Assembly (NCBI GenBank): GCA_018668255.1
Contig: JABISZ010000099.1
Location: 1,918-65,917, forward strand
Reading direction: 5' to 3'
From: Pseudomonadota bacterium
GTDB taxonomy: Bacteria > Pseudomonadota > Gammaproteobacteria > Ga0077536
Length of the DNA: 64,000 bases
Under the pieces are notes generated by a model. It was not told where the DNA came from, ran no database searches, and saw only the letters and a list, made by a program, of their open reading frames with translations. The position numbers and the translations under genes were made by a program. Each line of letters opens with the position of its first letter. Within the stretch, counting starts at the first letter, position 1. This document shows, one piece after another, positions 3,538 to 58,883 of the stretch.

Positions 3538-4209
3538 TTACCTACGGTTAAACACTCTTTCTATAGTAATAGGTTCTAGCAATAGGCGCAGGTTTAACGT
3601 AATCGTATAGAGAAGTTCTTCAGGCGCTTGCAGTTTGAGGACTTCTAGATAAGTACCTCCCATCATATTTGTTGTTTCGAGAATGAGAGAATTCTCTTTC
3701 CAGTAAGCTAATGTGTGCCCTATACTATCCTCAACTAATTCTTCGCCCTTTGCAGAGTATATTCGGCCTGACGGATTCGGTTTTATTTCTCTAGGCAAAA
3801 GTTGATCATATAGGAAAAGATAATTCTTTTCTTTTGCACTAATGCTAAGGGTTTTGGCGGATATCAGTGGATAAGCAGTACCGACGCGTTTTAGGTTTTT
3901 TGCTGCTTTTCGTTCTTTCCCTTCCTTTACAGTTCTCCAATAGGCACTCTGAGATTCGTCTCCTGCAGTCCCGCGGGTGCGACCTCCAGAGATGGGCCTA
4001 TTGAATTTTGACATAGGTAGTCTTCGTCGGAATTGTCCTTTTAACTTCTTTTTGAGGTTGTCACTTGAGGGTTTGTCGAGCACCCAATCGCCCAGTAATA
4101 AATCATCGCTGGCAATCGCAGAGTGATAGGGACTTAAGCATACTAAAGCGAGTAGTAGAGAAGGGGCAGTGCGGCCTCTAAGGAATATGATAGTAGTCGA
4201 TAGAATCAT
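3538..4209 (-). CDS. hypothetical exported protein
   Basis: ORF 3538..4269; probable start at MILSTTIIFL... (4209), an N-terminal signal-peptide-like segment ending ...AIASDD. No recognisable domain. Confidence 0.5.
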   Translation of the reverse strand: MILSTTIIFLRGRTAPSLLLALVCLSPYHSAIASDDLLLGDWVLDKPSSDNLKKKLKGQFRRRLPMSKFNRPISGGRTRGTAGDESQSAYWRTVKEGKERKAAKNLKRVGTAYPLISAKTLSISAKEKNYLFLYDQLLPREIKPNPSGRIYSAKGEELVEDSIGHTLAYWKENSLILETTNMMGGTYLEVLKLQAPEELLYTITLNLRLLLEPITIERVFNRR

Positions 4210-4362
4210 GATTAATCTATTTAGTTTTTGTTTATTTACGAATCTTTTTGGTTTTATACCACGAACCAAGGCAACATATTGTTATGATAATTTAACATGG
4301 TGCTTGAGCCAAGGACTGTATAAGCGCTATTGTAATAAAGAAACTATTGGGGAGGACTCGAT

Positions 4363-5031
4363 GTGATTAAAGTCATTTCAGTATTTAAGCGAAAAGTAGG
4401 AATGGGAGTAGATGAATTTCAGGATTACTGGCTGAATCATCACGGACCAATGGTTGCCCGTTTACCAAGCGTGGAACGTTATGTCCAGTCTCATACCAGG
4501 CGGTCAGGTTATGCCAGACATGAGCCTGCAGCCGATGGCCTTAGCGAGTTGTGGTTTGAAGATACAGATGCTCTTTACAATCTTCAATCATCGCGAGAAC
4601 TGCAGCAGGTTTCTGATGATGAGGAGCGCTTCATCGACTTGGCATCTTCTGTGCAAATTTTAGTCGATGAGCATGTAATAAAAGATGGGGCTGCTTTAGT
4701 TGAAGGTGTGAAAAATATCGAATTTGTTCGTCGAAAACATGAAATAGATGTTGATGCGTTCCAGCATCATTGGCGCGAGATACATGGGCCATTAGGAGCT
4801 TCAATCAAGCAAGTAAGCCGCTATGTTCAAAATCATGCAAAGAGTAGTTCCTACCTGAATGGCCGGTCTCCTAAGCTGGATGGCCTTGCCTTAACCTGGT
4901 TTAAAGATGTTGATGCTATGAGGGAATCTGCGCAGTCGGCAGAGTATGAGGCTACGCGTGACGACGAGGAAAATTTCCTTACTACCCCATTAGATTTCAT
5001 TATTGCTCAAGAGCATGTTTTAGTAGGTTAA
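4363..5031 (+). CDS. tandem EthD-domain protein
   Basis: GTG start with GGGGAGG RBS 7 nt upstream. Two internal repeats of about 100 aa (VGMGVDEFQDYWLNHHGPMVARLPSVERYVQSH... and HEIDVDAFQHHWREIHGPLGASIKQVSRYVQNH...) match EthD-like (dimeric alpha+beta barrel) domains. Confidence 0.65.
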   Translation: MIKVISVFKRKVGMGVDEFQDYWLNHHGPMVARLPSVERYVQSHTRRSGYARHEPAADGLSELWFEDTDALYNLQSSRELQQVSDDEERFIDLASSVQILVDEHVIKDGAALVEGVKNIEFVRRKHEIDVDAFQHHWREIHGPLGASIKQVSRYVQNHAKSSSYLNGRSPKLDGLALTWFKDVDAMRESAQSAEYEATRDDEENFLTTPLDFIIAQEHVLVG

Positions 5032-41978: not shown

Positions 41979-42797
41979 TTAGTTAGGCATTGGGTGCCAG
42001 CCGGCATCAGCCCAAAGCTGTCCGCTGACTGCAGAGTTACGAATTAAAAATGAGATTGCGTCTGCGATTTCTTCTGGTCGAATAAGACGTTTTATTTGTG
42101 TCGCCGGCAATATTTCATTGTTAATGTAGTCCTCGCCCAGTGCCCGAACCATAGGGGTGTCGGTAAACCCGGGATGTAGCACCGCGCAGCGAATGCCATA
42201 GAATATCGCTTCTTTAGTCAGTGTAGAGGCCGCGCCTTCAAGGCCAACTTTTGTAGAGGCGTAAGCAATTTGCCCTTTATTACCTTGTGAGGAGACTGAA
42301 CCGATAAAGATAACAACTCCCTGAGTCCCTTCCATGGGATCCCATTTTTTCAAACCTTTGCTAAACCTGCTCTCTGCTAGCTGAGCTACCATTTCCATAG
42401 CCCAATAGGTTGGCGCGATCAAATTAACTTCAACTACTTGACGGAAATTTTCAATGGGATAAATATTGGCGGTCCCTTTCTCTTTGTTTAGTCGAACGGC
42501 TAAGGCATCTCGAGTTATCCCCGCTGCGGGCACGCAAATATTTACAGGTCCGTGTTGCGTCCGCATAGTCTCAAAAACACGTTTTCTGAACTCTGGGTCG
42601 GTGGTATCTCCTTGAAAGCCTATTGCGACAGTTTTGCCTCTTAATTTATTGATTTCGTACGCAAGCTCGAGCACGGCGTCAGATAGGTCGACTAATGCGA
42701 GCACCTTGATTTTTTGCTTTTGCAGCTCTATAGCTGCAGCGCGCCCGATTCCACTAGCTGCACCAGTAATCACGCCTACCTTACCTTCAATGTCCAT
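41979..42797 (-). CDS. SDR family oxidoreductase
   Basis: VGVITGAASGIGRAAA, ...YASTK... catalytic Tyr-x3-Lys. Confidence 0.8.
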   Translation of the reverse strand: MDIEGKVGVITGAASGIGRAAAIELQKQKIKVLALVDLSDAVLELAYEINKLRGKTVAIGFQGDTTDPEFRKRVFETMRTQHGPVNICVPAAGITRDALAVRLNKEKGTANIYPIENFRQVVEVNLIAPTYWAMEMVAQLAESRFSKGLKKWDPMEGTQGVVIFIGSVSSQGNKGQIAYASTKVGLEGAASTLTKEAIFYGIRCAVLHPGFTDTPMVRALGEDYINNEILPATQIKRLIRPEEIADAISFLIRNSAVSGQLWADAGWHPMPN

Positions 42798-46907: not shown

Positions 46908-49001
46908 TTACTTGTGAGCCTGAGCCCAATCATTAACGACGGCAGCAGCTTCGTTTAACAATACATCAAACTCTTCCGAATACTTTTCGATTTCGTCATT
47001 GGGTTCCTTTGATGTATTCTCCGCTATTGATTCAAAATCAGTGGTTAAGGGCTCTCTACCTTGAAAGACTCGAATTTTGTTTTCGAGTAAACGTCGGTTA
47101 AGGCGGCCCTCAGAATAACGTGTGTCTCGAACCGACTCCATGAGGGATACTATTTTGTCGTTTCGAGTCTCCTCAATAAGTTTTTCGATAGCTATTAAAC
47201 TTTGAAATGCTTTGTTAGTTTTTACCCTTTCACTATGAAGGTCAGACATTTTCTTTAACCGTAGGTCATTTTGTTGCATTGGTAAGTATGTGGCAGGTTT
47301 GATAGCTTCCCATGCTAAGGCATTATCCAGTGATCGCTCGCCGTATTTTTTCGATGAAAAAGGAATAGGAAATATCACGTCTGGGATTACTCCTCGGTGC
47401 TGAGTACTCTCTCCGTTAACTCTAAAAAACTTTGCGATAGTTGTTTTCAATTCTCCAAGCTTTCCTTTCATCGATTTATCGAAGCCATTTAAATCTACCA
47501 GGTTTTGAACGGTTCCTTTTCCAAAAGTAGCTTCACCTATTAGGACTGCTCGATTGTAGTCTTGCATTGCTCCGGCAAATATTTCAGATGCTGAAGCACT
47601 ATGTCTGTCGACCAAAACTCCCAAAGGCCCTTTGAAAATAAAGCCTTGCTTGTCATCTTTTTCGGCACTAATACGACCGCGAGAATCTTTGACTTGGACC
47701 ACTGGCCCGTAATCTATGAACAATCCAGTCAATGCAGTAGCTTCCGAAAGTGAACCTCCGCCATTAGACCTGAGATCTATCAGAATCCCCTCCACTTCGG
47801 CCTTAACGAGCTCCGTTATTAATTCCTGCACATCTCTAGTAGTGCTTCTATAGTTCTTCACACCTCTGCTACGCGCATCAAAATCCAAATAGAAAGTAGG
47901 AATTGTAATGACACCTATTTTGGACGTTACGCCTTTATTATTTATGTTTAATACCGATTGCTTTGCAGCCTGGTCTTCTAATTTAATGGTGTCTCGAGTT
48001 ATCGAAACGACATCAGTTGGTGCGCCGACAGAGCTACCTTTCCGCAATACCTCAAGCCGCACCAAAGATTGCTTAGGGCCTCTTATGAGATCAACGACAT
48101 CATCAAGACGCCACCCCACAACATCTACAATCGGTCCACTTTCGCCTTGACCTATTCCAACAATGCGATCGGAAGGAAATAATGCTTCGGTTAAGTCTGC
48201 TGGACCTCCAGTAACAATTTCTTTGATTAAAGTAAGCTCGTTTTCACTCTGGAGGATGGCACCAATCCCTTCAAGAGACAGACTCATTCGTATTCTAAAA
48301 TTTTCAGATTGTCTAGGTGAAAAATACGTGCTGTGAGGGTCAACACTTCTAGTGAAGGAATTGATGACAGTTTGAAAAACATCGTCACTAGTGAGCTGTT
48401 TTGCTCTACGAAGTGCGCCTTTGTAACGGGTTTGCAACTTAGACTTGATCTCATCCGGACCTTTCCCCGCAAGTCGTAAAGAAAGAACGTCATTTTTGAC
48501 TTTCTTTCTCCATATATTATTTAATTGCACGACGTTTGTAGCCCAATTTTCTTCTGACCTGTCGATAATTAAGGATTCATCACTTTTGAATTCAAAAGTA
48601 TTGTCAAGTTGACTTAAACTAAACGAGATCCTGTTTTCTAATCGTTTTCTGAATGTTTTGAAAATATTGAACATAGGGTCTAAATCTGGCTTCTTCAAGT
48701 AGTCGTCTACTAAATGCTTGTGAAGGCTAAAACTGTCAATATCTGTTTTGAGAAAATGAGTCCTTTGTGGGTCTAACATTTTGATGTACTGGTCTAAAAT
48801 TTTTTCAGATAGCTTGTCATTTAATAGGGTCTTTTCATAATGATAATTACCGAGAACATACGTTACTATTTTTGATGCTCGCCCGTGCTCGAGAGAAGAC
48901 CGTAAGGACTCCTCTGCTACTATTGGAGCTTCGGCTAAGGTAGCATTAGAAAAGCTCAATAATGCTAATGAGAGGAATCCTATGGCTGATTTTTTTTTCA
49001 T
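46908..49001 (-). CDS. prc: carboxy-terminal processing protease (S41 family, tail-specific protease)
   Basis: 697 aa with a signal peptide, PDZ region, and S41 catalytic domain (...DLRSNGGGSLSEA... Ser, ...GPLGVLVDRHSASASEIFAG... Lys region). Confidence 0.85.
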   Translation of the reverse strand: MKKKSAIGFLSLALLSFSNATLAEAPIVAEESLRSSLEHGRASKIVTYVLGNYHYEKTLLNDKLSEKILDQYIKMLDPQRTHFLKTDIDSFSLHKHLVDDYLKKPDLDPMFNIFKTFRKRLENRISFSLSQLDNTFEFKSDESLIIDRSEENWATNVVQLNNIWRKKVKNDVLSLRLAGKGPDEIKSKLQTRYKGALRRAKQLTSDDVFQTVINSFTRSVDPHSTYFSPRQSENFRIRMSLSLEGIGAILQSENELTLIKEIVTGGPADLTEALFPSDRIVGIGQGESGPIVDVVGWRLDDVVDLIRGPKQSLVRLEVLRKGSSVGAPTDVVSITRDTIKLEDQAAKQSVLNINNKGVTSKIGVITIPTFYLDFDARSRGVKNYRSTTRDVQELITELVKAEVEGILIDLRSNGGGSLSEATALTGLFIDYGPVVQVKDSRGRISAEKDDKQGFIFKGPLGVLVDRHSASASEIFAGAMQDYNRAVLIGEATFGKGTVQNLVDLNGFDKSMKGKLGELKTTIAKFFRVNGESTQHRGVIPDVIFPIPFSSKKYGERSLDNALAWEAIKPATYLPMQQNDLRLKKMSDLHSERVKTNKAFQSLIAIEKLIEETRNDKIVSLMESVRDTRYSEGRLNRRLLENKIRVFQGREPLTTDFESIAENTSKEPNDEIEKYSEEFDVLLNEAAAVVNDWAQAHK

Positions 49002-49144: not shown

Positions 49145-50218
49145 ATGCCTTACAAATTCATTGATCGACAGCAAGACTTAGATACTTGGATTGATAGAGT
49201 GTCCGCTATTAAGGTCATAGGTCTTGATACAGAGTTTCTTTGGGAACGGACTTATTTTCCAAAACTCTGCCTGATTCAAATAGCTGCTGATGATTCTATA
49301 GCATGTATCGATACTTTAGCTTTGGAGGATCTCTCTTGTCTAAATGAAATGATGCACGTTTCTACCGTGCAAAAAGTGTTCCATGCGGCCAAACAGGACA
49401 TTGAAGTGCTTCATGTTGCTGGCCTGGAGGCTCGCGAGCAGATATTTGACACACAGGTAGCTGCCGGATTGCTAGGTATGGCAGAGCAAATTGGTTATGG
49501 GGACTTAGTCGAGACTCTTGTAGGAGTCCGCTTAGAAAAATCTCAAACCAGGACTGATTGGACGTCCCGACCGCTTAACATTCGTCAATTGGATTACGCT
49601 GCAAATGACGTGAAGTATCTTGCAGACATGGCACAAATTATGTCAGAGAAATTACTGTCACTAGGAAGATTAGATTGGTGTTTGGAGGATTGTCGCAGAT
49701 TACAACAGTCCTATCGATCGGTCTTAGCCCCCTGGGAGAGAATCTCAGGTATCGGAAAGCTAGAATCAAGAAGTTTCGCGATAGCGGTGGGTATAGCTGT
49801 TTGGAGAGACGATAAAGCGAAAGAAATGGATTTACCGAGGGGGTGGGTTTTTTCTGATAAGCAGATTTTATCCATCGCTGTAGAAAAACCTAAGACGTTA
49901 AAAGAGTTATCGTCTATCTTGAATGACAAACCAAATATACTCCGCAAGTTCAGCGAAAATCTGTTGGAACTTGTAGATAGTGACAGCTTAGTAAGCAGCC
50001 TTAGTGCGTATAGAAAAGTTCCACTTTCAATTTCGCAACGAAAGCACGCCAAAGAAATAAAGAAAAAAATAGCTACAATAGCTGCTGATCTTGATGTCGG
50101 CTCGAGCTTGCTGTGCACCTCTAAAGAGATAGAAGCATGTTTACGTGGAGATATTCCTGAAAGAATTTCCACTGGATGGCGCCAAGATCTTGTGTGTGGT
50201 CTGTTCGAGCCGATCTAA
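49145..50218 (+). CDS. rnd: ribonuclease D
   Basis: ...IGLDTEFLWERTYFPKLCLIQIA... DEDDy exonuclease motif I, ...YAANDVKYL... motif III, HRDC-like C-terminal region. Confidence 0.85.
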   Translation: MPYKFIDRQQDLDTWIDRVSAIKVIGLDTEFLWERTYFPKLCLIQIAADDSIACIDTLALEDLSCLNEMMHVSTVQKVFHAAKQDIEVLHVAGLEAREQIFDTQVAAGLLGMAEQIGYGDLVETLVGVRLEKSQTRTDWTSRPLNIRQLDYAANDVKYLADMAQIMSEKLLSLGRLDWCLEDCRRLQQSYRSVLAPWERISGIGKLESRSFAIAVGIAVWRDDKAKEMDLPRGWVFSDKQILSIAVEKPKTLKELSSILNDKPNILRKFSENLLELVDSDSLVSSLSAYRKVPLSISQRKHAKEIKKKIATIAADLDVGSSLLCTSKEIEACLRGDIPERISTGWRQDLVCGLFEPI

Positions 50219-50249: not shown

Positions 50250-51242
50250 CTAGTTCAGAGTTTGGCGATATATTGATGGACAATTGTTGTGGTTCTTCAG
50301 GCTTTCTTCACACCAGTCGAGTATTTTTTTCTCAGTAGATTTCACATAACTGACTTGCCCGTTATCACTGCTAAACTGACTGGAAAATAAAGGTTCTTCT
50401 GGATAAAGGTTTTTGACAGTCTTAAAGAAGCCCTTAGGTAACCTAAATGCTCCTATTGTTATTGAATGGAGCGTTTTGAAATCAAGTTGTTCAGTTATTT
50501 GTTCGATTAAAAATGTATATTCTGCTCTAAAATTCTCAATAAACACTATCGGGTCAAGTCTTAGCGCAACAGGCCATCCAGCTAATTGTAATTTTTTGGC
50601 CGCGGAAAGCCGTGCAGCAAGGGAGGGCGTTTGGTGCTCTAGAGTCTTAATAACTGCAGCAGGACTTAAGCTAAAAGCGCAAATCACATTGTTACGGGGC
50701 TTCATTTCCAATAGCTTGCGCACCTGAGTGCTTTTAGTTCTTAATTCTAAAAATGCATTATCTATCGATGAGATTTCTTCTATGAAGGATTTCGAAAACT
50801 CAGTGATTGGATCTAGCGCTAAGCTATCGCAGTCATAACCGGAATAAAACCACATAGGTTCTTTGGTTTTGACGGCCAAAGCTCTAATATCTTCTATAAA
50901 ATCCTCGTAATTGACAAAAATAACGTTATGGGCTGACTGAAACATTCCTTGCAAGAAGCAGTATCGACAATCGTAGATGCAATTAAGCATGTGTGAGAAA
51001 TAGTAATTATGGGTCGTGTTTAAGCCGTATTCTGCCGGCGCAGGCATAATTCTTTTATTGTGCTTTTCCGCTAGTATCAAACAAGGATCTTTTTTCTGAA
51101 TACGAAAGTCCTGTTGGTGACGGTTGAATATCTCGCCGTAGTGTTCACATGTTATGACCGTTGATTTAGGGAATTGGGACAATATTTTCAATGTCCTCGG
51201 ATGTTTCTCTATTCTCTTTTCAACATAGATAAAGCTAAACAT
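50250..51242 (-). CDS. spore-photoproduct-lyase (SPL) family radical SAM protein
   Basis: 330 aa. CIYDCRYC (C88x3C92x2C95) at the same position as SplB C91/C95/C98, with flanking similarity to B. subtilis SplB (FIYVEKR..., AEYG...NYYFSHMLNCIYDCRYCFLQGMF). Confidence 0.75.
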   Translation of the reverse strand: MFSFIYVEKRIEKHPRTLKILSQFPKSTVITCEHYGEIFNRHQQDFRIQKKDPCLILAEKHNKRIMPAPAEYGLNTTHNYYFSHMLNCIYDCRYCFLQGMFQSAHNVIFVNYEDFIEDIRALAVKTKEPMWFYSGYDCDSLALDPITEFSKSFIEEISSIDNAFLELRTKSTQVRKLLEMKPRNNVICAFSLSPAAVIKTLEHQTPSLAARLSAAKKLQLAGWPVALRLDPIVFIENFRAEYTFLIEQITEQLDFKTLHSITIGAFRLPKGFFKTVKNLYPEEPLFSSQFSSDNGQVSYVKSTEKKILDWCEESLKNHNNCPSIYRQTLN

Positions 51243-51244
51243 GT

Positions 51245-52066
51245 TCAGAATTTGGGCAGCAGTTTCTGCAGTCGACGATTTAAATTCTCTATCACGTCCT
51301 TTGCAGTCGCGCAGTTATTTAATTCCATGTCCTGCCATAAAGTTTGTTTGTCGAGGGCCTTAAAACGGCGAATACCCTCTCTAAGCTGACTTTTTTGTGT
51401 CTGGCTGAAATGCCATTTTTCGAATAATTCAGAACCAAGCTCTAGTTCGAAATTTCTAGCATCTTGCACTCTCATTTCTGCTTTTTTAATTAGGGCTTCT
51501 AAAGTCGGGATATGAGTTTTTACAATTTCGACGACGAGACTTTTAGTGATGTTCTTTGCATGGGATAATTTGTTATCAGAAATGAGCTTGAAAACGAATA
51601 GACATTCATTTTTTATATGCAAACTTGATCCCGCTGACATAAAACCTGCCGCTTCCATGTCACAAAGAGTATCATCGACATAATCATCAACAACGGCATC
51701 ATGAGTTGTTAAAGGCTTGACCAAAGTATTAGGGAGCTTGATTAAATTTGGATACCAAGTCTGTCGGCTGCTTTTACTTATGACTTTAGATACTGCTACG
51801 GCAGTGCCGATTGCATGATCTTTATGTCCAGCGATACCGAAATTTATCCAAATATGGTTGGGCAGAATTGAGAAAAAAGCAGCGGTATGAGCCAGTGCCG
51901 CGGCGCTAGGGCATTTGCCAATACCGGTGATAACTATTTTTAACTGCTCATTTGCATAGATAGGAAATGGATGTTGCTGCACGCTTTTTAGTCTGTAATG
52001 ATCGATTAGCGGTTGAGCCTCCGCTTTCAGTGCCACTAAAAGAGTTGTAGTGCCAGTAAGTTGCAT
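51245..52066 (-). CDS. MTA/SAH-nucleosidase / purine-nucleoside-phosphorylase-fold protein with about 110-aa C-terminal extension
   Basis: 273 aa. N-terminal about 160 aa parallels MTAN (LLVALKAEAQPL vs GIIGAMEEEV; ITGIGKCPSAAALAHTAAFF vs KSGIGKVAAALGATLLLE; INFGIAGH vs INTGSAGG; CDMEAAGF vs VEMEATAI). Helical C-terminal tail of unknown function. Overlaps the GT2 gene by 31 nt. Confidence 0.6.
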   Translation of the reverse strand: MQLTGTTTLLVALKAEAQPLIDHYRLKSVQQHPFPIYANEQLKIVITGIGKCPSAAALAHTAAFFSILPNHIWINFGIAGHKDHAIGTAVAVSKVISKSSRQTWYPNLIKLPNTLVKPLTTHDAVVDDYVDDTLCDMEAAGFMSAGSSLHIKNECLFVFKLISDNKLSHAKNITKSLVVEIVKTHIPTLEALIKKAEMRVQDARNFELELGSELFEKWHFSQTQKSQLREGIRRFKALDKQTLWQDMELNNCATAKDVIENLNRRLQKLLPKF

Positions 52067-52866
52067 TCTATTTTTTCGATCCTTTTTATAAGGTCTTTGT
52101 GCCCGCGCTTTTTTGCTCCATTTAGAACAACGTCAAGTTTTTTACGCAAGGCTTCTTTCACTTGTTGACGTTGACCGGATGTAAGAGGTTCTTCCACGAT
52201 TATTTTGTAGAGCGATTGTATCCTATATTGGTCCAGTATTGGGATAGACTCGGATAATTGGTCGGCGTGGCCTGCGTGTTTATATACCAAAGACTTATCG
52301 ATAAAACCAACTCTTTCCTGAGCAGTTATTCTCAACCATAAATCATAGTCCTCACAAGCTGGCAGCAATTCGTCAAAGCCGCCATGGCGATCTAGCAGAG
52401 CTTTTTTTATGAAAGCTGATGATGGGGATATCATACATCTTAGTAAGCTGACGCCGAAGAGTTGGCCTCCTGATTTTCTATGATATTTCTTTTGGTTGAC
52501 GTGTTTTCCATTTCGGAACCAGGTTTCATCGCAATGAATCAGAGAGATTGTAGGCTCTTGTTTGGCCATATCTGCTTGCTCTTCTAGCTTTTTCGGCAAC
52601 CATTCGTCATCTGAATCTAATAAAGCGATCCAGTTACCCTGAGCAATTTTCACACCTGAGTTTCGAGCGATGCTCACACCTTGCCTGTCCTGTTTTATAT
52701 AGTTCACTTGCGGATACTTCCGTGAAATCATTTCCTGCGTAGAGTCTTGCGAGCCATCATCTACGACTATGATTTCGGCAGGGGCTAGTGTTTGCTTATA
52801 GACGGAAGAAATTGCACGCTCTAGCATTTGCACTCTGTTGTAAGTAGGTATCACAACACTAATCAT
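52036..52866 (-). CDS. family 2 glycosyltransferase
   Basis: ISVVIPTYNR...VVDDGSQD...DSDDEW (DxD) GT-A fold signature. Confidence 0.8.
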   Translation of the reverse strand: MISVVIPTYNRVQMLERAISSVYKQTLAPAEIIVVDDGSQDSTQEMISRKYPQVNYIKQDRQGVSIARNSGVKIAQGNWIALLDSDDEWLPKKLEEQADMAKQEPTISLIHCDETWFRNGKHVNQKKYHRKSGGQLFGVSLLRCMISPSSAFIKKALLDRHGGFDELLPACEDYDLWLRITAQERVGFIDKSLVYKHAGHADQLSESIPILDQYRIQSLYKIIVEEPLTSGQRQQVKEALRKKLDVVLNGAKKRGHKDLIKRIEKIECNLLALQLF

Positions 52867-52884
52867 CTACCCAGATTTGCCTTA

Positions 52885-53430
52885 TTAAATTTGTTTTGGA
52901 TTTAGAACAAAACCAAAGTGTTGTGGCACCACTGCTTTAGCGATTGATTTTATTTTATAATTTTTGTCTCTGTAGCGTAATTTTGTGGGGATGTCATTTA
53001 CAGTTTCGATCAGATCAGATGCCGCACTTAGATCTCTGTCGTCAACGACTCCCACTCCTAGGGCGGTAGACAGTAATAAATTCCCATACTCGTCTAAAAA
53101 AAACTCAAGTAAATCCGGCATCTTAGCTTCGTGATGTATGTAAAAACCAGAATGGTTTGAGAACCCGTAAAGTCTGGGCGTATATTCTAAAGAAACAAAT
53201 GCTCGTTGAGGACCATTCTGCACGAACCACCGACCAAGATTGTCGAAGTTGTAGTTCCGCTGGAGAAATCGCTGCGTATTAGTATGGTGTACTTTCTCTC
53301 CCTTTATACTCCATTCAGCTCGTCTGTTGAGACTTAGCCAGCCAAAACATTCTGGAACGTCAGGCCATTTCGCCATTGCTTTTTGGACGCTTTTATCGAT
53401 AATTATTTTTTCCGGAGGAGTGTTTATCAT
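52885..53430 (-). CDS. hypothetical protein (possibly DUF1285-like)
   Basis: 181-aa ORF, 6 nt downstream of the bioA stop and 18 nt upstream of the GT2 start. Weak resemblance to DUF1285 (W..LD..G.W...G..I.H...F...). No catalytic motif. Confidence 0.45.
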   Translation of the reverse strand: MINTPPEKIIIDKSVQKAMAKWPDVPECFGWLSLNRRAEWSIKGEKVHHTNTQRFLQRNYNFDNLGRWFVQNGPQRAFVSLEYTPRLYGFSNHSGFYIHHEAKMPDLLEFFLDEYGNLLLSTALGVGVVDDRDLSAASDLIETVNDIPTKLRYRDKNYKIKSIAKAVVPQHFGFVLNPKQI

Positions 53431-53436
53431 AAAATA

Positions 53437-54726
53437 TCAAGATAGTGTTCGGATTATTTTTAGCACAGCTCTCGTGAGGATTTCTAATTCATCATCTCTA
53501 ATGATATAGGGTGGCATAAGGTAGATCAGTTTTCCAAATGGTCTAACCCATACACCATGGGATACAAATTCCCGAGATATTTTGGGTAAATCGACTGGTG
53601 AGAACAGCTCGATAACACCGATTGCTCCGAGGACACGGACGTTTTTTACTGTCGTAAGCTCGGATGCTGGCTGTAAAGCGGTTTTGAGAAATTTTTCAAT
53701 TCTTAAAACATTATTTTGCCAATCAGAACTGAGTAAAACTTCAAGGCTTGCATCTGCGCATGCACACGCCAGAGGATTAGCCATAAAGGTAGGGCCGTGC
53801 ATGAAAACACCCGGATGTCCGTCCGCTATTGTGTCTGCAACCTCTTGATTGCAAAGTGTGGCGGCCAAGCTCATATAACCTCCAGTGAGGCTTTTGCCGA
53901 CACACATGATATCCGGACTGACACCAGCATGTTCAGAAGCGAACATTCTACCTGTTCTACCAAACCCAGTTGCTATTTCATCAACGATAAGCAGCACATT
54001 GTTTTCGGTGCAGAAATGTCTGACTGCCTTTAAATAATCGGAATGGTAGAAATTCATCCCACCTGCTCCTTGTACAATTGGCTCAAGAATCACTGCACAG
54101 ATTTCGTGTAAATGCTGTTCTGCAATTTTGGTGAAACCGTCGAACTCAGAAGGATCCCAGTCTCCGTTCGGGTCGTTTACGGGTTTAGGTGCAAAAAATT
54201 GTTTGGCCAGTGCGTTGCTATACAATCCATGCATACCGGTTACTGGATCGCATACGCTCATAGCACCGAAAGTATCTCCGTGATATCCACCTTCTAGAGT
54301 GAGAAATTTATTTTTACTCGGCTGGCCCTTTGATGCAGCCCATTGAATAGCCATTTTCATGGCCACTTCGACTGAAACAGACCCTGAATCACTAAAAAAG
54401 ACATGTTTTAGCGCGGGGCTGGATAAGTCAATCAGTTTTTTTGCGAGCGTTACTGCGGGTTTGTGAGTGAGGCCTCCAAACATGATATGAGCCATATCCT
54501 CTAGTTGCGCACGGATTGCTGCGTTGAGTACAGGATGATTATATCCATGAATCGCGGACCACCAAGAAGACATCCCATCTATTAGATTCTGCCCATTTTC
54601 TAGAGTAATAGTACAACCGGATGCGCTTTTTACGGGAAATACTGGGTGCGGATTTACAGGTGAAGTATATGGGTGCCAGATATGGTCGTGATCATACTGA
54701 ACCCAATCAAAAGGCTCGTTGTTCAT
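53437..54726 (-). CDS. bioA: adenosylmethionine--8-amino-7-oxononanoate transaminase
   Basis: ...HIWHPYTS..., ...LLIVDEIATGFGRTGRMFA... (PLP Lys region). Start taken at MNNEPF, whose ATG overlaps the pyrC TGA (ATGA). Confidence 0.85.
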   Translation of the reverse strand: MNNEPFDWVQYDHDHIWHPYTSPVNPHPVFPVKSASGCTITLENGQNLIDGMSSWWSAIHGYNHPVLNAAIRAQLEDMAHIMFGGLTHKPAVTLAKKLIDLSSPALKHVFFSDSGSVSVEVAMKMAIQWAASKGQPSKNKFLTLEGGYHGDTFGAMSVCDPVTGMHGLYSNALAKQFFAPKPVNDPNGDWDPSEFDGFTKIAEQHLHEICAVILEPIVQGAGGMNFYHSDYLKAVRHFCTENNVLLIVDEIATGFGRTGRMFASEHAGVSPDIMCVGKSLTGGYMSLAATLCNQEVADTIADGHPGVFMHGPTFMANPLACACADASLEVLLSSDWQNNVLRIEKFLKTALQPASELTTVKNVRVLGAIGVIELFSPVDLPKISREFVSHGVWVRPFGKLIYLMPPYIIRDDELEILTRAVLKIIRTLS

Positions 54727-55775
54727 GACGTTGCTTTTTTCCAATAGAGATTGAAAGGGGGCGAAAAGACCTCAACACTATCGGCATCAATTACCACATT
54801 TGGGAAAACTAAAGGCTTATTTTCCTTTTTATAAGTTACGAGCTCTGTGTTGATAGGTAAGTTGTAAAATAAGGGGCCATTTTTTGAAGCAAAATCATTG
54901 AATTGGCCTAATGCATCTGCTTGTTCGAATATTTGAAGATATGTGGATATGGCGCAAGGACTATTGTATATCCCAGCGCAACCACATGAGGACTCTTTTG
55001 TTTCTTTTGTGTGTGGAGCGGAGTCGGTGCCCAGGAAAAAGTGCTCGTCTCCTGAGCAGGCTGCTCGAAGAAGTGTTCGTCTATGTTCTTCTCTTTTAGC
55101 TATCGGCAGGCAGTACATGTGAGGTCTAATTCCGCCTTGGAACATAGCGTTTCTGTTGATAGAAAGGTGGTGGGGTGTGATGGTTGCGGCTAAGCAGCTA
55201 GGGTTTTCATTTTCTATGTACTCGACAGCCTGTTTGGTAGTGATATGTTCAAACACAATTTTTAACTTCTTATGTCGAGCTCTCAGAGGTATTAATATTT
55301 TTTGAATAAAAACATTCTCTCTATCAAAAACATCAACATTGTCGTCTACTACTTCGCCATGTACTAATAGGGGACAACCGAGTTCGCTTAGAACATCGAA
55401 AACATCATCAAGATAACTAATATTTGTGACGCCATTATTAGAGTTAGTAGTTGCACCGGCAGGATATAGTTTTGCCGCGGTATAGGCGCCAGATTTCAAG
55501 CCTTCTCTGAGATCATCTGGATCCGTCGTATCAGTAAGATAACAGGTCATTAGAGGCGAAAATTTTGACTTATCAGGAAGTTGATTTAAGATTTCATCGC
55601 GATAGGCCGTAGCCATTGACCTTGTCGTTATCGGGGTAGGAAGATTGGGCATAATGATTGCCCTTCCAAAATCGCGAGACGTGTCGCCGATTACCGCCGC
55701 CAACACATCATCATTCCTAACATGAAGATGCCAATCATCTGGTCGGTTGAAAGTAATAACGTTTTCATTTTTCAT
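54723..55775 (-). CDS. pyrC: dihydroorotase, class II (E. coli type)
   Basis: ...RPDDWHLHVRND... (HxH), ...KLYPAGATTNS... (carboxylated Lys region), ...FLGTDSAPH... Confidence 0.85.
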   Translation of the reverse strand: MKNENVITFNRPDDWHLHVRNDDVLAAVIGDTSRDFGRAIIMPNLPTPITTRSMATAYRDEILNQLPDKSKFSPLMTCYLTDTTDPDDLREGLKSGAYTAAKLYPAGATTNSNNGVTNISYLDDVFDVLSELGCPLLVHGEVVDDNVDVFDRENVFIQKILIPLRARHKKLKIVFEHITTKQAVEYIENENPSCLAATITPHHLSINRNAMFQGGIRPHMYCLPIAKREEHRRTLLRAACSGDEHFFLGTDSAPHTKETKESSCGCAGIYNSPCAISTYLQIFEQADALGQFNDFASKNGPLFYNLPINTELVTYKKENKPLVFPNVVIDADSVEVFSPPFNLYWKKATS

Positions 55776-55927: not shown

Positions 55928-57565
55928 ATGCTGGGTCAAATGATGGATACGCCTTTGTTGATAAAAAATCTCGCGTCCCATGCCGAGAGAAATCATGGAT
56001 TCCAGGAAATAGTATCCGTTGCAGTGGATAATGATCGACACCGATATACTTTCAATGAAGCGTTATCCCGCTCCCGGAAAGTCAGCAACCTACTTGACAG
56101 GTTGAATTGTGCTTCTGATGCTCGAATAGCGACACTTGCTTGGAATGACTACCGGCATGTGGAATTATACTATGGAGTGTCCTGCAGCGGCCGAGTGTTG
56201 CATACCGTAAATCCGAGGTTGTTTCCTGAACAACTGATTTATATTCTTAACCATGCTGAGGATGAATTCGTTTTCTTCGATGTCGCCTTTACTAAGTTGC
56301 TGGAATCAATAGCTAGCGATTGTCCTTCTGTCAAAGGTTATGTAGCTCTAGCTCCGCGCAGCTGCATGCCTGACAGCAATCTTCCTAATCTGATGTGTTA
56401 TGAAGACTTGCTAGCAAAAGAATCCTCAGACTACGATTGGCCAGATTTAGATGAGAACACCGCAAGTGGTCTTTGCTACACGTCAGGGACTACTGGGAAC
56501 CCCAAGGGAGTCCTCTATAGCCATCGCAGTACAGTCTTACATACTTATGGCATGTGTATGCCTGATGCGGCTAGCCTTTCTGCTCAAGATGTAATTTTAC
56601 CTGTGGTTCCTATGTTCCATGTTAATGCTTGGGGCTATCCCTATGCTGGAATGATGGTAGGGGCAAAAATTGTACTTCCTGGACCCAAGTTAGGTGATGC
56701 GGAGACACTAGTTAGTTTGATAAACGAAGAGGGCGCTACCATAGCTGGGGGTGTTCCTACTGTTTGGCTGCCATTGCTGGAATATCTTAAAAACACAAAA
56801 AAAGAAATAAAGACGCTCACCCGCACGGTTATTGGAGGTTCTGCCTGTCCGTTATCCATGATGGAAGAATTTCGAGACAATTACGGAGTCAGGGTTTTGC
56901 ATGGTTGGGGAATGACAGAAATGAGCCCTGTGGGCGTTGTTAATACCCCGAATGCGAGAACTAGTGGGCTAATCGGCGATGAATTGAAAACGCACCTTGT
57001 CAAACAGGGGAGAGCCCTGCCGGGAGTTGAGATTAAAATTACTGATGAAGATAATCGGTCACTGCCGTGGGATGGAATCAAGTTTGGCGCTTTAAAAGTT
57101 CGTGGCCCGTGGGTGTGCTCCGGCTACTACAGAGTGAAAAATTCCGATGCCCATCAGTCAGACGGTTGGTTTGATACTGGCGATGTCGCAACCATAGATA
57201 TAAACGGTTGCGTGAAGATTACAGATCGGACTAAAGACGTCATTAAATCAGGTGGAGAATGGATTAGCTCTATAGAACTTGAAAATGTCGGAATGTCTTA
57301 CCCAGGCGTTAGGGAATGCGCAGTTGTTGGTATGGCCCACGCTAAATGGCAAGAGCGTCCATTACTTGTTGTTGTTGCTAAAAATTCTTCCGAAGACTTT
57401 TCGGTAGCACAATTTTTGTCTTTCTTTGAAGGCAAAGTCGCAAAGTGGTGGATACCTAACGATGCAATTTTCGTTTCTGAGCTGCCGCACACAGCAACTG
57501 GAAAAGTTAGCAAGCTTCTCTTACGCGAGTCTTTAGAGGGTTATAAATTTCCCGACGACAATTAA
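55928..57565 (+). CDS. AMP-dependent synthetase/ligase (fatty-acid--CoA ligase family)
   Basis: ...[20 protein letters not shown]... (AMP-binding motif I), ...GWGMTEMSP..., ...DGWFDTGD..., ...SGGEWISS... Confidence 0.85.
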
Positions 57566-57701
57566 AATAATCGGTCGGCCAACAAGAAAGCGAAGTTAAA
57601 TTTTTCTGGCATTTTATGTTTTAATGTAAGGCTATTGAGAAATAAACATGTAAAAAGACGATGCATCAAATGTTTGAATGCCATTACTTGGAGAGAATTA
57701 T

Positions 57702-58883
57702 ATGAGTGAATCTATTGTTATAGCAGGGCTTGCACGAACGCCCATGGGTGGGATGCAAGGCGATCTCTCAAACGTTTCTGCACCTGTCCTAGGTGAGACA
57801 GCTATCCGTGGTGCGCTAAAGCGCGCTGGAATCGCGCCAGAGGCCGTCGAAGAAACTATCATGGGGTGCGTGTTGCCTGGCGGCTTAGGGCAAGCACCAG
57901 CCAGACAAGCGTCTATGGGTGCAGGTATTCCTGACTCAACGCCTTGCACAACGGTTAATAAGATGTGCGGCTCAGGTATGAAGACTATTATGATGGCACA
58001 CGATGCTATTAAGGCAGGGTCGGCAGACGTCATCGTTGCTGGGGGCATGGAGAGCATGACCAACGCGCCCCACATGCTACCTAAGTTGCGGAGCGGAATG
58101 AGGCTAGGACATGGAGAAGTTTTGGACCATATGTTGGTCGACGGCTTAGAGTGCGCTTTTGAGAAAGGGCGTTTGATGGGTAATTTTGCGGAAGATTGCG
58201 CAACGAAATACGAGTTTACGAGAGAAGCTCAAGATGCTTATGCGATTGAATCATTGAAAAGAGCTCAGAGTGCTATAACAAAAGGATTATTCAAGCCTGA
58301 AATTGAGGCGGTTAAATACCAGACTCGCAAAGGTGAGGTCAACGTCGATACCGATGAGCAACCTGCAAAAGCGCAATTAGATAAAATACCTAGCTTGCGT
58401 CCTGCTTTTGCAAAAGATGGCACGGTGACTGCTGCAAACTCTAGCTCGATCTCAGATGGAGCTGCGGCAGTAGTTTTATGCTCAGAAACTAAAGCTAAAG
58501 AACTTGGAGTAAATGCAGTCGCGCGCATCTTAGCCCACACCTCTCATGCTCAGGCACCAGGTTGGTTTACCACTGCGCCCGTATATGCCATTGATAAATT
58601 ACTGACCAAAGTGGGTTGGTCTGTTGAGGACGTTGATTTATTCGAGGTGAACGAAGCCTTCGCGGTTGTGGCCATGGCCGCTATGAAAGAAATAGGGATC
58701 TCTCACAATAAATTGAATGTTAGAGGAGGCGCATGCGCCCTTGGCCACCCTGTCGGCGCATCAGGTGCCCGCATTTTGGTGACACTAGCGCAAGCACTTA
58801 TTGATTCAGGGGGCACCAAAGGGGTCGCCAGTTTATGCATAGGTGGGGGCGAGGCAACAGCTATGGCAATCGAACTGGTGTAA
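57702..58883 (+). CDS. acetyl-CoA C-acyltransferase / thiolase
   Basis: ATG 57702 with GGAGAG RBS (ORF-track TTG at 57678). ...VNKMCGSGMK... (active Cys), ...NEAFAVVAMA..., C-terminal ...GGACALGHPVGASGAR... and ...CIGGGEA... Confidence 0.9.
   Translation: MSESIVIAGLARTPMGGMQGDLSNVSAPVLGETAIRGALKRAGIAPEAVEETIMGCVLPGGLGQAPARQASMGAGIPDSTPCTTVNKMCGSGMKTIMMAHDAIKAGSADVIVAGGMESMTNAPHMLPKLRSGMRLGHGEVLDHMLVDGLECAFEKGRLMGNFAEDCATKYEFTREAQDAYAIESLKRAQSAITKGLFKPEIEAVKYQTRKGEVNVDTDEQPAKAQLDKIPSLRPAFAKDGTVTAANSSSISDGAAAVVLCSETKAKELGVNAVARILAHTSHAQAPGWFTTAPVYAIDKLLTKVGWSVEDVDLFEVNEAFAVVAMAAMKEIGISHNKLNVRGGACALGHPVGASGARILVTLAQALIDSGGTKGVASLCIGGGEATAMAIELV

Follow-up and report, generated by a model that had tools for sequence, protein, structure and literature searches.

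A conserved gene module of an SPL-fold radical SAM enzyme, a tailed MTAN-like protein, a GT2 glycosyltransferase and an SDR: a tentative role in adenosylation and adenine removal

Introduction

In several described systems (MqnE/MqnB, ArsS, and SalL/SalT/SalN/SalM), a 5'-substituted 5'-deoxyadenosine is passed to a PNP/MTAN-fold enzyme, and in some of the precedents (Hpn, Mqn, ArsS, Sal) an SDR or GT2 step follows. In the SalL-SalT-SalN-SalM and FlA-FlB routes, a PNP-fold enzyme, a phosphatase, and an SDR process the 5'-substituted 5'-deoxyadenosine or the pentose freed from it. Spore photoproduct lyase (SPL) is a radical SAM enzyme that abstracts hydrogen, and its chemistry is a radical beta-scission, i.e., a lyase reaction. 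To our knowledge, no other enzyme of the SPL fold has been characterised so far, and we know of no SPL-family enzyme that carries out adenosylation. The H-atom donor of SPL is numbered Cys140 in the Gt enzyme and Cys141 in the Bs enzyme, with Tyr98/Tyr99 as the relay residue. A nucleosidase is also found in queuosine salvage, where QueK belongs to the IUNH family and does not have the MTAN fold. QueK is described as a nucleoside hydrolase and QueL as a radical SAM queuine lyase. In the HpnH/HpnG/HpnI system, a 5'-substituted 5'-deoxyadenosine is routed through a PNP/MTAN-fold enzyme (review PMC13459092). The locus compared here with these systems lies in a marine gammaproteobacterial contig, of which a stretch of 64,000 nucleotides, the window, was analysed.

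Organization of the Locus

The genes form a co-oriented run on the minus strand, in which pyrC is the first, and the run is bounded by the convergent rnd gene:

49145..50218, plus strand, rnd, ribonuclease D (TIGR01388, 285 bits), convergent
50250..51242, minus strand, SPL-fold radical SAM enzyme, 330 aa (PF20903, 83 bits)
51245..52066, minus strand, nucleosidase-like protein of the MTAN fold, 273 aa, bearing a C-terminal helical tail
52036..52866, minus strand, GT2 (GT-A fold) glycosyltransferase, 276 aa (PF00535, 119 bits)
52885..53430, minus strand, DUF2944 protein, 181 aa (PF11161, 159 bits)
53437..54744, minus strand, bioA, adenosylmethionine-8-amino-7-oxononanoate transaminase (NF005940, 651 bits, above the cutoff of 625)
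54723..55775, minus strand, pyrC, dihydroorotase (TIGR00856, 395 bits, above the cutoff of 293)

The ORF list bears out the first-pass annotation in its placing of the four genes from DUF2944 to the SPL-like gene and in their spacing, with an 18-nt gap between the DUF2944 and GT2 genes, a 31-nt overlap of the GT2 and MTAN-like genes, and 2 nt separating the MTAN-like from the SPL-like gene. The 6-nt gap between bioA and the DUF2944 gene follows from the same coordinates, and the overlap of bioA with the pyrC stop as ATGA holds for an internal ATG at 54726; the longest ORF of bioA starts at a TTG at 54744. The rnd gene lies 31 nt past the SPL-like stop and sits where the canonical module has its SDR gene, a boundary also found in loci L009, L010, L095, and L100.

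The earlier view of the run as attached to pyrC-bioA holds for the window as plain adjacency; it does not hold as a general feature, since linkage of the module to bioA occurs only in the sublineage of the window (loci L001, L003, L010, L011, L013, L095, L100, and L107). A functional link to bioA through a SAM-derived by-product was considered as the main explanation and rejected because the adjacency is confined to this one sublineage and because locus L096 has the bioA-DUF2944 pair without the module. Between positions 49900 and 56100, the promoter scan gave 15 sites vs 14.6 expected and the terminator scan 6 vs 5.4, both at chance level; promoter-like sites lie 5' of pyrC at 55839-55812, in a number not above chance. 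These counts are no evidence for or against transcription as a single operon. A search of the window and of seven module loci gave no Rfam family and no riboswitch. The SPL-like, MTAN-like, GT2, and DUF2944 proteins are all predicted to be soluble, a prediction that leaves a lipid substrate possible without favouring it.

The DUF2944 gene had been listed as a member of the packed set. Its adjacency and co-orientation are confirmed, whereas core membership is not, because most of its relatives lie elsewhere: among 80 metagenomic relatives, the module adjoins only the closest, bioA-linked ones, and for most of them bioA and the module are both absent within 6 kb. The protein therefore probably lies outside the core of the module. 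It has no PDB relative, and it contains one Cys, no CxxC, and no RAPP. The NCBI label of the window protein, “DUF2946 family protein,” is a naming collision; CruR (“DUF2946”) is PF11162. The possibility that the protein is CruR-like (a copper-responsive uORF protein) was rejected, given its match to PF11161 and its failure to meet the combined criterion of export signal, CxxC, and C-terminal RAPP.

A Divergent SPL-Fold Radical SAM Enzyme

The radical SAM protein carries the CxxxCxxC motif and has the SPL fold, and the only NCBIfam models that it matches are those of SPL. It nevertheless scores 93.5 bits vs a cutoff of 400 with the SplB equivalog TIGR04070 and 70.2 bits vs 437.6 with the SPL model TIGR03886, so neither is met. 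It belongs to a distinct subfamily, with the cluster motif Cys88-x3-Cys92-x2-Cys95, invariant Tyr94, Phe96, Tyr136, Asp137, and Asp139, and nearly invariant Cys138, which is represented at no fewer than 592 species loci (at least) and in thousands of protein clusters. When the family is aligned with G. thermodenitrificans SPL (GtSPL) by hhalign, Cys140 is matched by Tyr136 and Tyr98 by Phe96, two residues that are invariant in 33 sequences, and Ser142 is matched by Cys138. In the profile alignment, Tyr96 of GtSPL, kept as Tyr94, is the sole one retained among Cys140, Tyr98, and Tyr96. Judged by these alignments, the enzyme lacks the Cys140/Tyr98 hydrogen-return relay of SPL.

The first-pass annotation had considered it unlikely that this homologue repairs spore photoproduct, and had named the retention of all DNA-binding and repair residues, together with complementation of a UV-sensitive mutant, as a finding that would refute its reading. 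The replacement of Cys140 by Tyr and of Tyr98 by Phe agrees with the former and does not fulfil the latter; we do not read the module as a system for the repair of spore photoproduct. The comparison of charge rests on sequence composition alone: the family has a median pI of 6.8 and a net charge of -1, compared with pI 9.3 and +11 for GtSPL, and the C-terminal (hairpin) region carries -5 in the family and +3 in GtSPL.

The MTAN-Like Protein and the Glycosyltransferase

The proposed MTAN/PNP fold with a C-terminal helical extension was borne out, and the extension turned out to be family-wide. The tail covers about residues 175-272 (~100 aa) and has the conserved motifs W-HF(S/T)xT(Q/E) and RRW; proteins of this tailed architecture, 264-294 aa long, occur throughout the MTAN-like family. 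A NifQ-like identity of the tail was rejected, as the match is weak (19.4 bits, below the cutoff) and found in only 2 of 26 family members. The family is large and divergent: its profile matches, at E<=1e-30, about 2100 representatives that each stand for one cluster at 50% identity, and the alignment is without any conserved stretch of 7-10 columns. Invariant E16, E138, and D164 correspond by hhalign to Glu12, Glu174, and Asp197 of E. coli MTAN. The protein thus keeps the MTAN residues for hydrolysis of adenine from a 5'-substituted adenosine, and the activity itself is an inference from sequence. Among the curated MTAN families, only fut_nucase and PRK05634 were matched, at 25.7 bits vs cutoffs of 125-129. 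The best structural matches include bacterial MTANs, among them the C. jejuni enzyme, which also acts on aminofutalosine.

The PF00535 GT-A domain of the glycosyltransferase exceeds its cutoff by far (119 bits vs 23.3), and the translation contains an acidic DxD-type motif (LDSDDEW). No NCBIfam equivalog cutoff was met and no TM segment is predicted for this protein. The closest entry in the PDB is the chondroitin polymerase of E. coli K4, matched in its C-terminal transferase domain (2z86/2z87, E 1e-28).

Conservation of the Module

Module loci were found by a profile scan of genome contigs with the SPL-like alignment. In 44 of 71 loci, the MTAN-like gene directly precedes the SPL-like gene, and in 37/71 a GT2 gene stands upstream of the MTAN-like gene. 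The trio of SPL-like, MTAN-like, and GT2 genes proved recurrent in many Gammaproteobacteria, a Myxococcota MAG, and a MAG labelled Rhodobacteraceae, where in independent gene calls the order is unchanged and the genes are linked by 4-22-nt overlaps or short gaps. Lack of such conservation, i.e., chance adjacency, had been the other finding named as refuting the first reading, and this recurrence across phyla shows that it does not apply. The flanks of the module vary by lineage (pyrC-bioA, mdh/dapB, ribosomal genes, acyl-CoA genes), which argues that selection holds the module together. The trio of the window is one copy of an undescribed module present in hundreds of non-sporulating species; a literature search, including DUF2944 and non-sporulating SPL homologues, yielded nothing on it.

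The true fourth core member is an SDR, which is absent from the window. An SDR gene lies immediately downstream of the SPL-like gene in 52 of 77 loci, all four genes are present in 27/66, and the module SDRs constitute one orthologous group with 38-49% identity across phyla. The only SDRs found in the window (41979-42797, and 15-524 at the window edge) are just 20-28% identical and hence unrelated paralogues. Other variations concern the remaining genes. In five loci, a DSP-PTPase-like phosphatase is inserted between the GT2 and MTAN-like genes, which fits the processing of a ribosyl or ribosyl-phosphate intermediate. In Methylococcales, only the SPL-like and SDR genes are adjacent, with a 13-nt overlap; in L089, the single Methylomonas genome examined, the MTAN-like gene occupies another site, and no GT2 gene is nearby. 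GT2 is also missing from loci L013, L017, and L110, and in one Verrucomicrobiota locus no SPL-like gene adjoins the MTAN-like gene.

Proposed Function and Alternative Explanations

The conservation of the module and of its gene order is directly observed. Rather than repairing DNA, the module probably acts on a metabolite with an adenosyl group; that its enzymes share an adenosyl-containing substrate is inferred. The reading proposed here, in which our confidence stays somewhat short of even, is that the trio is a copy of a widespread, translationally coupled module with an adenosylation/adenine-removal mechanism, composed canonically of GT2, the tailed MTAN-like protein, the SPL-fold radical SAM enzyme, and SDR. 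No substrate is identified and there is no experiment. It assumes that, with the relay missing, SAM would be consumed stoichiometrically. The 5'-deoxyadenosyl radical would most likely add to an unsaturated carbon of the substrate, a small molecule or a lipid, in the way known from HpnH, MqnE, and ArsS, after which the MTAN-like enzyme would remove adenine from the adenosylated product. Next, C1 of the freed ribosyl could be reduced or oxidised by the SDR, encoded elsewhere or lost in the window lineage, and a sugar would be added by GT2. A more specific version, which we regard as possible but doubtful, is that an SPL-fold enzyme was recruited for C-adenosylation in a further, separately evolved pathway of the kind known from MqnE, HpnH, and ArsS, with radical adenosylation followed by adenine removal, and that together with the tailed hydrolase, SDR, and GT2 it makes a glycosylated metabolite or lipid extended by a pentose or polyol. 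Such a pathway would range over hundreds of marine and freshwater Gammaproteobacteria, including methanotrophs, and some Myxococcota and Verrucomicrobiota.

Several points speak against this proposal: besides the incomplete loci described above, the lack of the SDR in the window, and the absence of any known adenosylating enzyme in the SPL family, the invariant Tyr at the Cys140 position and the nearly invariant Cys two residues on could still return the H atom, and the nucleosidase could simply be removing inhibitory 5'-deoxyadenosine. The latter leads to another explanation, rather unlikely in our estimate, in which the SPL-like enzyme performs H-abstraction (as a lyase, isomerase or similar) on a metabolite shared with GT2 and SDR, with stoichiometric use of SAM, and the MTAN-like protein, perhaps docked by its tail, only hydrolyses the inhibitory by-product. 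Product inhibition of radical SAM enzymes is known to be relieved by MTAN, the catalytic residues are intact, and loss of the Cys140/Tyr98 relay implies stoichiometric 5'-dAdo; in Methylococcales, the MTAN-like gene can be unlinked while the SPL-like and SDR genes overlap by the mentioned 13 nt. However, general MTAN, MTAP or PNP normally serve all radical SAM enzymes of a cell, and a dedicated, fast-evolving nucleosidase with its own 100-aa tail, kept beside one enzyme across phyla, would be unusual for scavenging. The roles of GT2 and SDR are also left unexplained.

It is less probable still, indeed improbable, that the module serves salvage or catabolism of a modified nucleoside, with the nucleosidase freeing a modified adenine-type base and a radical SAM lyase stripping its substituent. 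SPL chemistry is of the lyase type, and the pairing of a nucleoside hydrolase with a radical SAM lyase is documented for QueK/QueL. Yet QueK is an IUNH-family enzyme rather than an MTAN-fold one, GT2 is biosynthetic, the radical SAM protein matched SPL models only, and neither a recurrent transporter next to the module nor an upstream riboswitch was found. That the SPL homologue repairs a DNA or RNA lesion in non-sporulating bacteria, be it thymine-dimer-like or cleavable by radicals in another way, is in our view very improbable, considering the replaced Cys140 and Tyr98, the scores far under the SPL equivalog cutoffs, the near-neutral family with an acidic, not basic, hairpin region (by composition), the non-sporeforming hosts, and constant partners (nucleosidase, SDR, GT2) none of which is a DNA-repair gene. 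The lineage-specific pyrC-bioA-DUF2944 linkage could suggest that unrelated genes came together by chance behind pyrC-bioA, but the MTAN-like/SPL-like pair, mostly with GT2 and SDR, recurs in order across contexts and phyla, and for the trio this explanation, to which we give almost no weight, is already refuted by the neighbourhood counts.

A redesigned active-site relay together with constant non-DNA partners in a large sister subfamily of SPL implies new radical SAM chemistry, and the MTAN-like partner represents a branch of the MTAN family that is large, lacks annotation, and has an extra domain of its own. If adenosylation is true, the module would be a new entry in the short list of pathways using the SAM adenosyl group as a carbon building block, and an unknown class of metabolites would be predicted in abundant marine bacteria and methanotrophs. 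Even under more modest readings, the module provides a testable handle on two families whose current labels, “spore photoproduct lyase/DNA photolyase” and “adenosylhomocysteine nucleosidase,” are mis-annotations.

Comparison with Known Systems

SplB (EC 4.1.99.14; PDB 4fhc) is 19% identical to the SPL-like enzyme. Its basic C-terminal hairpin is not conserved in the SPL-like family, as far as composition can tell, and, unlike SplB, the SPL-like enzymes are always accompanied by a nucleosidase, SDR or GT2 and occur in non-sporeformers. Similarly, MtnN/Pfs (EC 3.2.2.9) shares 14-21% identity with the MTAN-like protein, which meets no MTAN equivalog model and has Ile in place of Ser76. MtnN/Pfs is a single-domain protein of ~230 aa, whereas the MTAN-like protein adds a helical C-terminal domain of ~100 aa with its own motifs and, in contrast to MtnN/Pfs, is encoded in linkage with a radical SAM gene. 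QueK/QueL resembles the module in pairing a nucleoside hydrolase with a radical SAM lyase; the nucleosidase fold is different, and no transporter or Q genes were seen near the module.

The judgement that the arrangement maps to no named pathway is upheld, with Mqn, Hpn, arsenosugar, and mycofactocin model scores all far below cutoff. The futalosine pathway (MqnE with MqnB/MTAN) is like the module in its proposed order of radical SAM adenosylation and MTAN-fold hydrolysis, and the combined criterion of an MqnE-family radical SAM enzyme and an MqnB equivalog was not met. For arsenosugars, GT2 scored 69 bits vs a cutoff of 182 with TIGR04283, and no ArsS-type model was matched. The Hpn pathway (PMC13459092) shares with the module a radical SAM enzyme, an adenine-removing PNP/MTAN-fold enzyme, and a GT2, and it needs a reduction between adenine removal and GT2 glycosylation. 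As noted in the first-pass annotation, its radical SAM enzyme is HpnH-type and that of the module SPL-type; HpnB reached 22 bits vs a cutoff of 379, HpnG was not matched at E<=0.01, and the module neighbourhoods inspected contained no squalene-hopene cyclase or other hpn genes. The Sal and Fl routes resemble the module in their SDR and, for five module loci, in the phosphatase, a likeness that does not rest on sequence comparison with SalM or SalT. In these routes, the 5'-substituted adenosine comes from a halogenase, whereas in the module it would come from the radical SAM enzyme.

The locus and its surroundings

The four minus-strand open reading frames lie exactly where the first-pass annotation had placed them, in a run that stops 31 nt short of the convergent rnd.

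50250..51242, minus strand: SPL-like radical SAM enzyme, 330 aa (PF20903, 83 bits)
51245..52066, minus strand: MTAN-like protein, 273 aa
52036..52866, minus strand: GT2 glycosyltransferase, 276 aa (PF00535, 119 bits)
52885..53430, minus strand: DUF2944 protein, 181 aa (PF11161, 159 bits)

The tight packing claimed for them follows from the ORF coordinates, with a 2-nt gap between the MTAN-like and SPL-like genes, a 31-nt overlap of GT2 with the MTAN-like gene, and gaps of 18 nt between DUF2944 and GT2 and 6 nt between bioA and DUF2944. The identities of bioA and pyrC were confirmed by family scans, and the ATGA overlap described between them exists: an internal bioA ATG at 54726 forms it with the pyrC stop, the longest bioA ORF having a TTG start at 54744. 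Since GC is even over the region (0.39-0.45) and promoter-like and terminator-like sites there are not commoner than in shuffled sequence, co-transcription of the run is plausible and not shown. The window is collinear with DGOV01000106.1 (uncultured ‘Proteobacteria bacterium UBA4457’; 88.4% nucleotide identity, 11.8 kb), and an identical DUF2944 protein is present in marine MAGs and Tara Oceans data. Genes for acyl-CoA synthetase-like (545 aa) and thiolase-like (401 aa) proteins, divergent from pyrC (55928-58883, plus strand), and for a Tsp-type tail-specific protease (46908-49001, minus strand) are ordinary housekeeping context, also kept in the homologous locus L095.

Conservation of the module

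Gene calls round homologues gave the order pyrC-bioA-DUF2944-rhomboid-GT2-MTAN-like-SPL-like in two large gammaproteobacterial contigs, MTAN-like-SPL-like-SDR in a third, and GT2-MTAN-like-SPL-like-SDR in a Myxococcota MAG, a ‘Rhodobacteraceae’ MAG and another gammaproteobacterium. In some loci mdh and dapB flank GT2-MTAN-like-SPL-like, and an unassigned flagellated bacterium has methyltransferase-MTAN-like-SPL-like. When one genome per species was scanned, the SPL-like subfamily appeared in at least 592 species, the best 80 of which include Methylococcales, Arenicellales, Thiotrichales, Granulosicoccaceae, Chromatiales and a Verrucomicrobiota MAG, among others. Neighbours were labelled in six-frame ORFs of 84 loci by phmmer/hmmsearch and, independently, by all-against-all clustering, and counted only in loci with sufficient flank. 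The MTAN-like gene is directly upstream of the SPL-like gene in 44/71 loci and GT2 is upstream in 37/71, so with the arrangement found in several phyla the trio is recurrent and not a chance adjacency. An SDR gene directly follows the SPL-like gene in 52 of 77 loci (within 6 kb in 62 of 77); the complete four-gene set occurs in 27 of 66, and only 2 of 66 have no partner gene. At the 84 labelled loci no other gene family recurred beyond local synteny, which probably also accounts for the CysB-like LysR regulator, DUF1820 protein and glutaredoxin seen near the module in one gammaproteobacterial MAG group (L020, L022, L025, L036, L057, L075 and others).

In Methylococcales the SPL-like locus holds only an overlapping SPL-like-SDR pair, with a 13-nt overlap and beside proC/yggT/yggU in Methylobacter, Methylomonas and Methyloprofundus (L076 10001-11697; L035, L040, L047, L058-L067 and others). 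Nucleosidase and GT2 are both absent within 10 kb of these pairs; a Methylomonas genome carries a stand-alone MTAN-like gene elsewhere (L089 8001-8813). An exception to the pairing is a Verrucomicrobiota MAG (L006 8001-8837), whose MTAN-like gene adjoins no SPL-like gene and is surrounded by genes for hypothetical proteins, a HAD/Acid_PPase phosphatase and an SDR.

The earlier grouping of four genes on pyrC-bioA is correct as adjacency and cannot be generalized. The trio stands; the fourth core member is the SDR, missing from the window, and not the DUF gene. The DUF2944 protein has at least 557 metagenomic relatives, and among 80 of them the module adjoins only the closest, bioA-linked ones; L096 has bioA-DUF2944 without the module, and the bulk of the 80 lack both bioA and the module within 6 kb and have no constant partner in common. 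The DUF2944 gene and the pyrC-bioA linkage are thus lineage-specific, and DUF2944 is probably not a core member. It is also worth noting that PF11161 is named DUF2944 and described as ‘DUF2946’ (NCBI name ‘DUF2946 family protein’), and that the published DUF2946/CruR (PF11162) is unrelated. Identification with copper-responsive CruR, which has CxxC and RAPP, was rejected; the window protein lacks both motifs, and no membrane-spanning segment is predicted in it. No solved relative of the PF11161 family was found. One sublineage (L001 5642-6325 and 9166-11558; L003, L011, L096) has a rhomboid-family protease gene between DUF2944 and GT2 and a DCC1-like/LMF1 membrane protein gene after the SPL-like gene, with a GDSL lipase gene too in L001 and L003; the window lacks all three.

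Predicted activities of the module proteins

The SPL-like protein scores 93.5 bits against the SPL equivalog (cutoff 400). The family profile was aligned, at 98.6% probability, to the G. thermodenitrificans enzyme (GtSPL) recovered from PDB alignments. Cluster cysteines C88/C92/C95 correspond to GtSPL C90/C94/C97 and Tyr94 to Tyr96, while Phe96 sits at Tyr98, Tyr136 at Cys140 and Cys138 at Ser142; Phe96 and Tyr136 are invariant across 33 SPL-like sequences. In SPL, the product radical receives its hydrogen atom from Cys140, and Tyr98 is the relay back toward 5'-dAdo. With both residues replaced, the canonical relay is, on this alignment, absent, which agrees with the earlier doubt about spore-photoproduct repair. 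The family has a median pI of 6.8, net charge of -1 and -5 in the C-terminal hairpin region, against 9.3, +11 and +3 in GtSPL; this near-neutral charge, a matter of composition only, argues against a DNA substrate.

The MTAN-like protein was compared by hhalign with an E. coli MTAN reference 100% identical to 3o4v/1jys. E16 aligns with Glu12, M137-E138 with Met173-Glu174, K160 with Arg193 and S163-D164 with Ser196-Asp197, all invariant in the family alignment; from these residues it is inferred that the protein very probably hydrolyses adenine from 5'-substituted adenosine. An exhaustive profile search gave 5056 cluster representatives (2140 at E<=1e-30), the best 150 of which are all 264-294 aa and match at full length, tail included, so that, judged by these matches, the C-terminal tail is one of the features that define a large family. 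A weak NifQ-like resemblance of the tail was not reproduced across the family and was rejected.

The GT2 protein belongs to the soluble GT-A enzymes. Among solved structures it is closest to chondroitin polymerase, in the C-terminal transferase domain of the latter, and it reached no cutoff of the curated equivalog models. The module SDRs form one orthologous group (38-49% identity across phyla) resembling YMR226C/YdfG-type and sepiapterin reductases, enzymes whose substrates are small carbonyl compounds. The window SDR at 41979-42797 was rejected as a member, being an unrelated paralogue (20-23% identity); the window lineage therefore has no SDR at the module locus, where rnd takes its place. 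In five gammaproteobacterial loci (L015 8701-9183; also L039, L042, L052, L084) a DSP-PTPase-like phosphatase gene (PF22741, HCxxxxxR loop, 150-160 aa) lies between GT2 and the MTAN-like gene, which hints at a phosphorylated intermediate. In locus L094 a SAM_HAT gene (DUF62, SAM hydroxide adenosyltransferase / chlorinase-fluorinase family; 3684-4427) lies upstream of the module, about 1.8 kb from its first gene, GT2, and about 2.6 kb from the MTAN-like gene; this single case may be coincidence.

Possible pathway and its alternatives

The module is conserved and tightly coupled, with an SPL fold lacking the SPL relay and an intact MTAN catalytic apparatus. That the SPL-like enzyme consumes SAM, and that the nucleosidase acts on its adenosyl-containing product, is inferred. 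In the pathway that we prefer, tentatively and at somewhat less than an even chance, an unsaturated substrate would be C-adenosylated by a radical reaction, adenine would be removed from the product, the freed ribosyl C1 would be redox-adjusted by the SDR, and glycosylation would follow. It is preferred since it uses all conserved components in a chemically sensible order. Direct precedents are MqnE/MqnB, ArsS and the SalL-SalT-SalN-SalM route. Another is HpnH/HpnG/HpnI (PMC13459092).

It is possible, if unlikely, that the MTAN-like protein, with the same intact active site, merely clears 5'-dAdo made by an ordinary H-abstracting enzyme. Nucleoside salvage of the QueK/QueL type is considerably more doubtful. 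Nucleic-acid repair, for an enzyme that keeps the SPL fold and has neither the relay nor the charge of GtSPL, is the least credible of these readings. What probability remains belongs to an explanation not yet imagined. For the adenosylation pathway as for the others, function is unproven; the module is a well-defined, widespread target for experiment.

Comparison with known systems

Apart from the three corrections (SDR, DUF gene, bioA linkage), the first-pass interpretation is supported, including its statement that no named pathway fits: neither the literature search nor NCBIfam models or Rfam elements describe the module. It fails the membership tests of SplB and MtnN, and likewise those of the Hpn, Mqn, arsenosugar and mycofactocin systems. 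Nearest in working are the ‘radical adenosylation plus MTAN-fold hydrolase’ systems, from which the module differs by its SPL-type enzyme.
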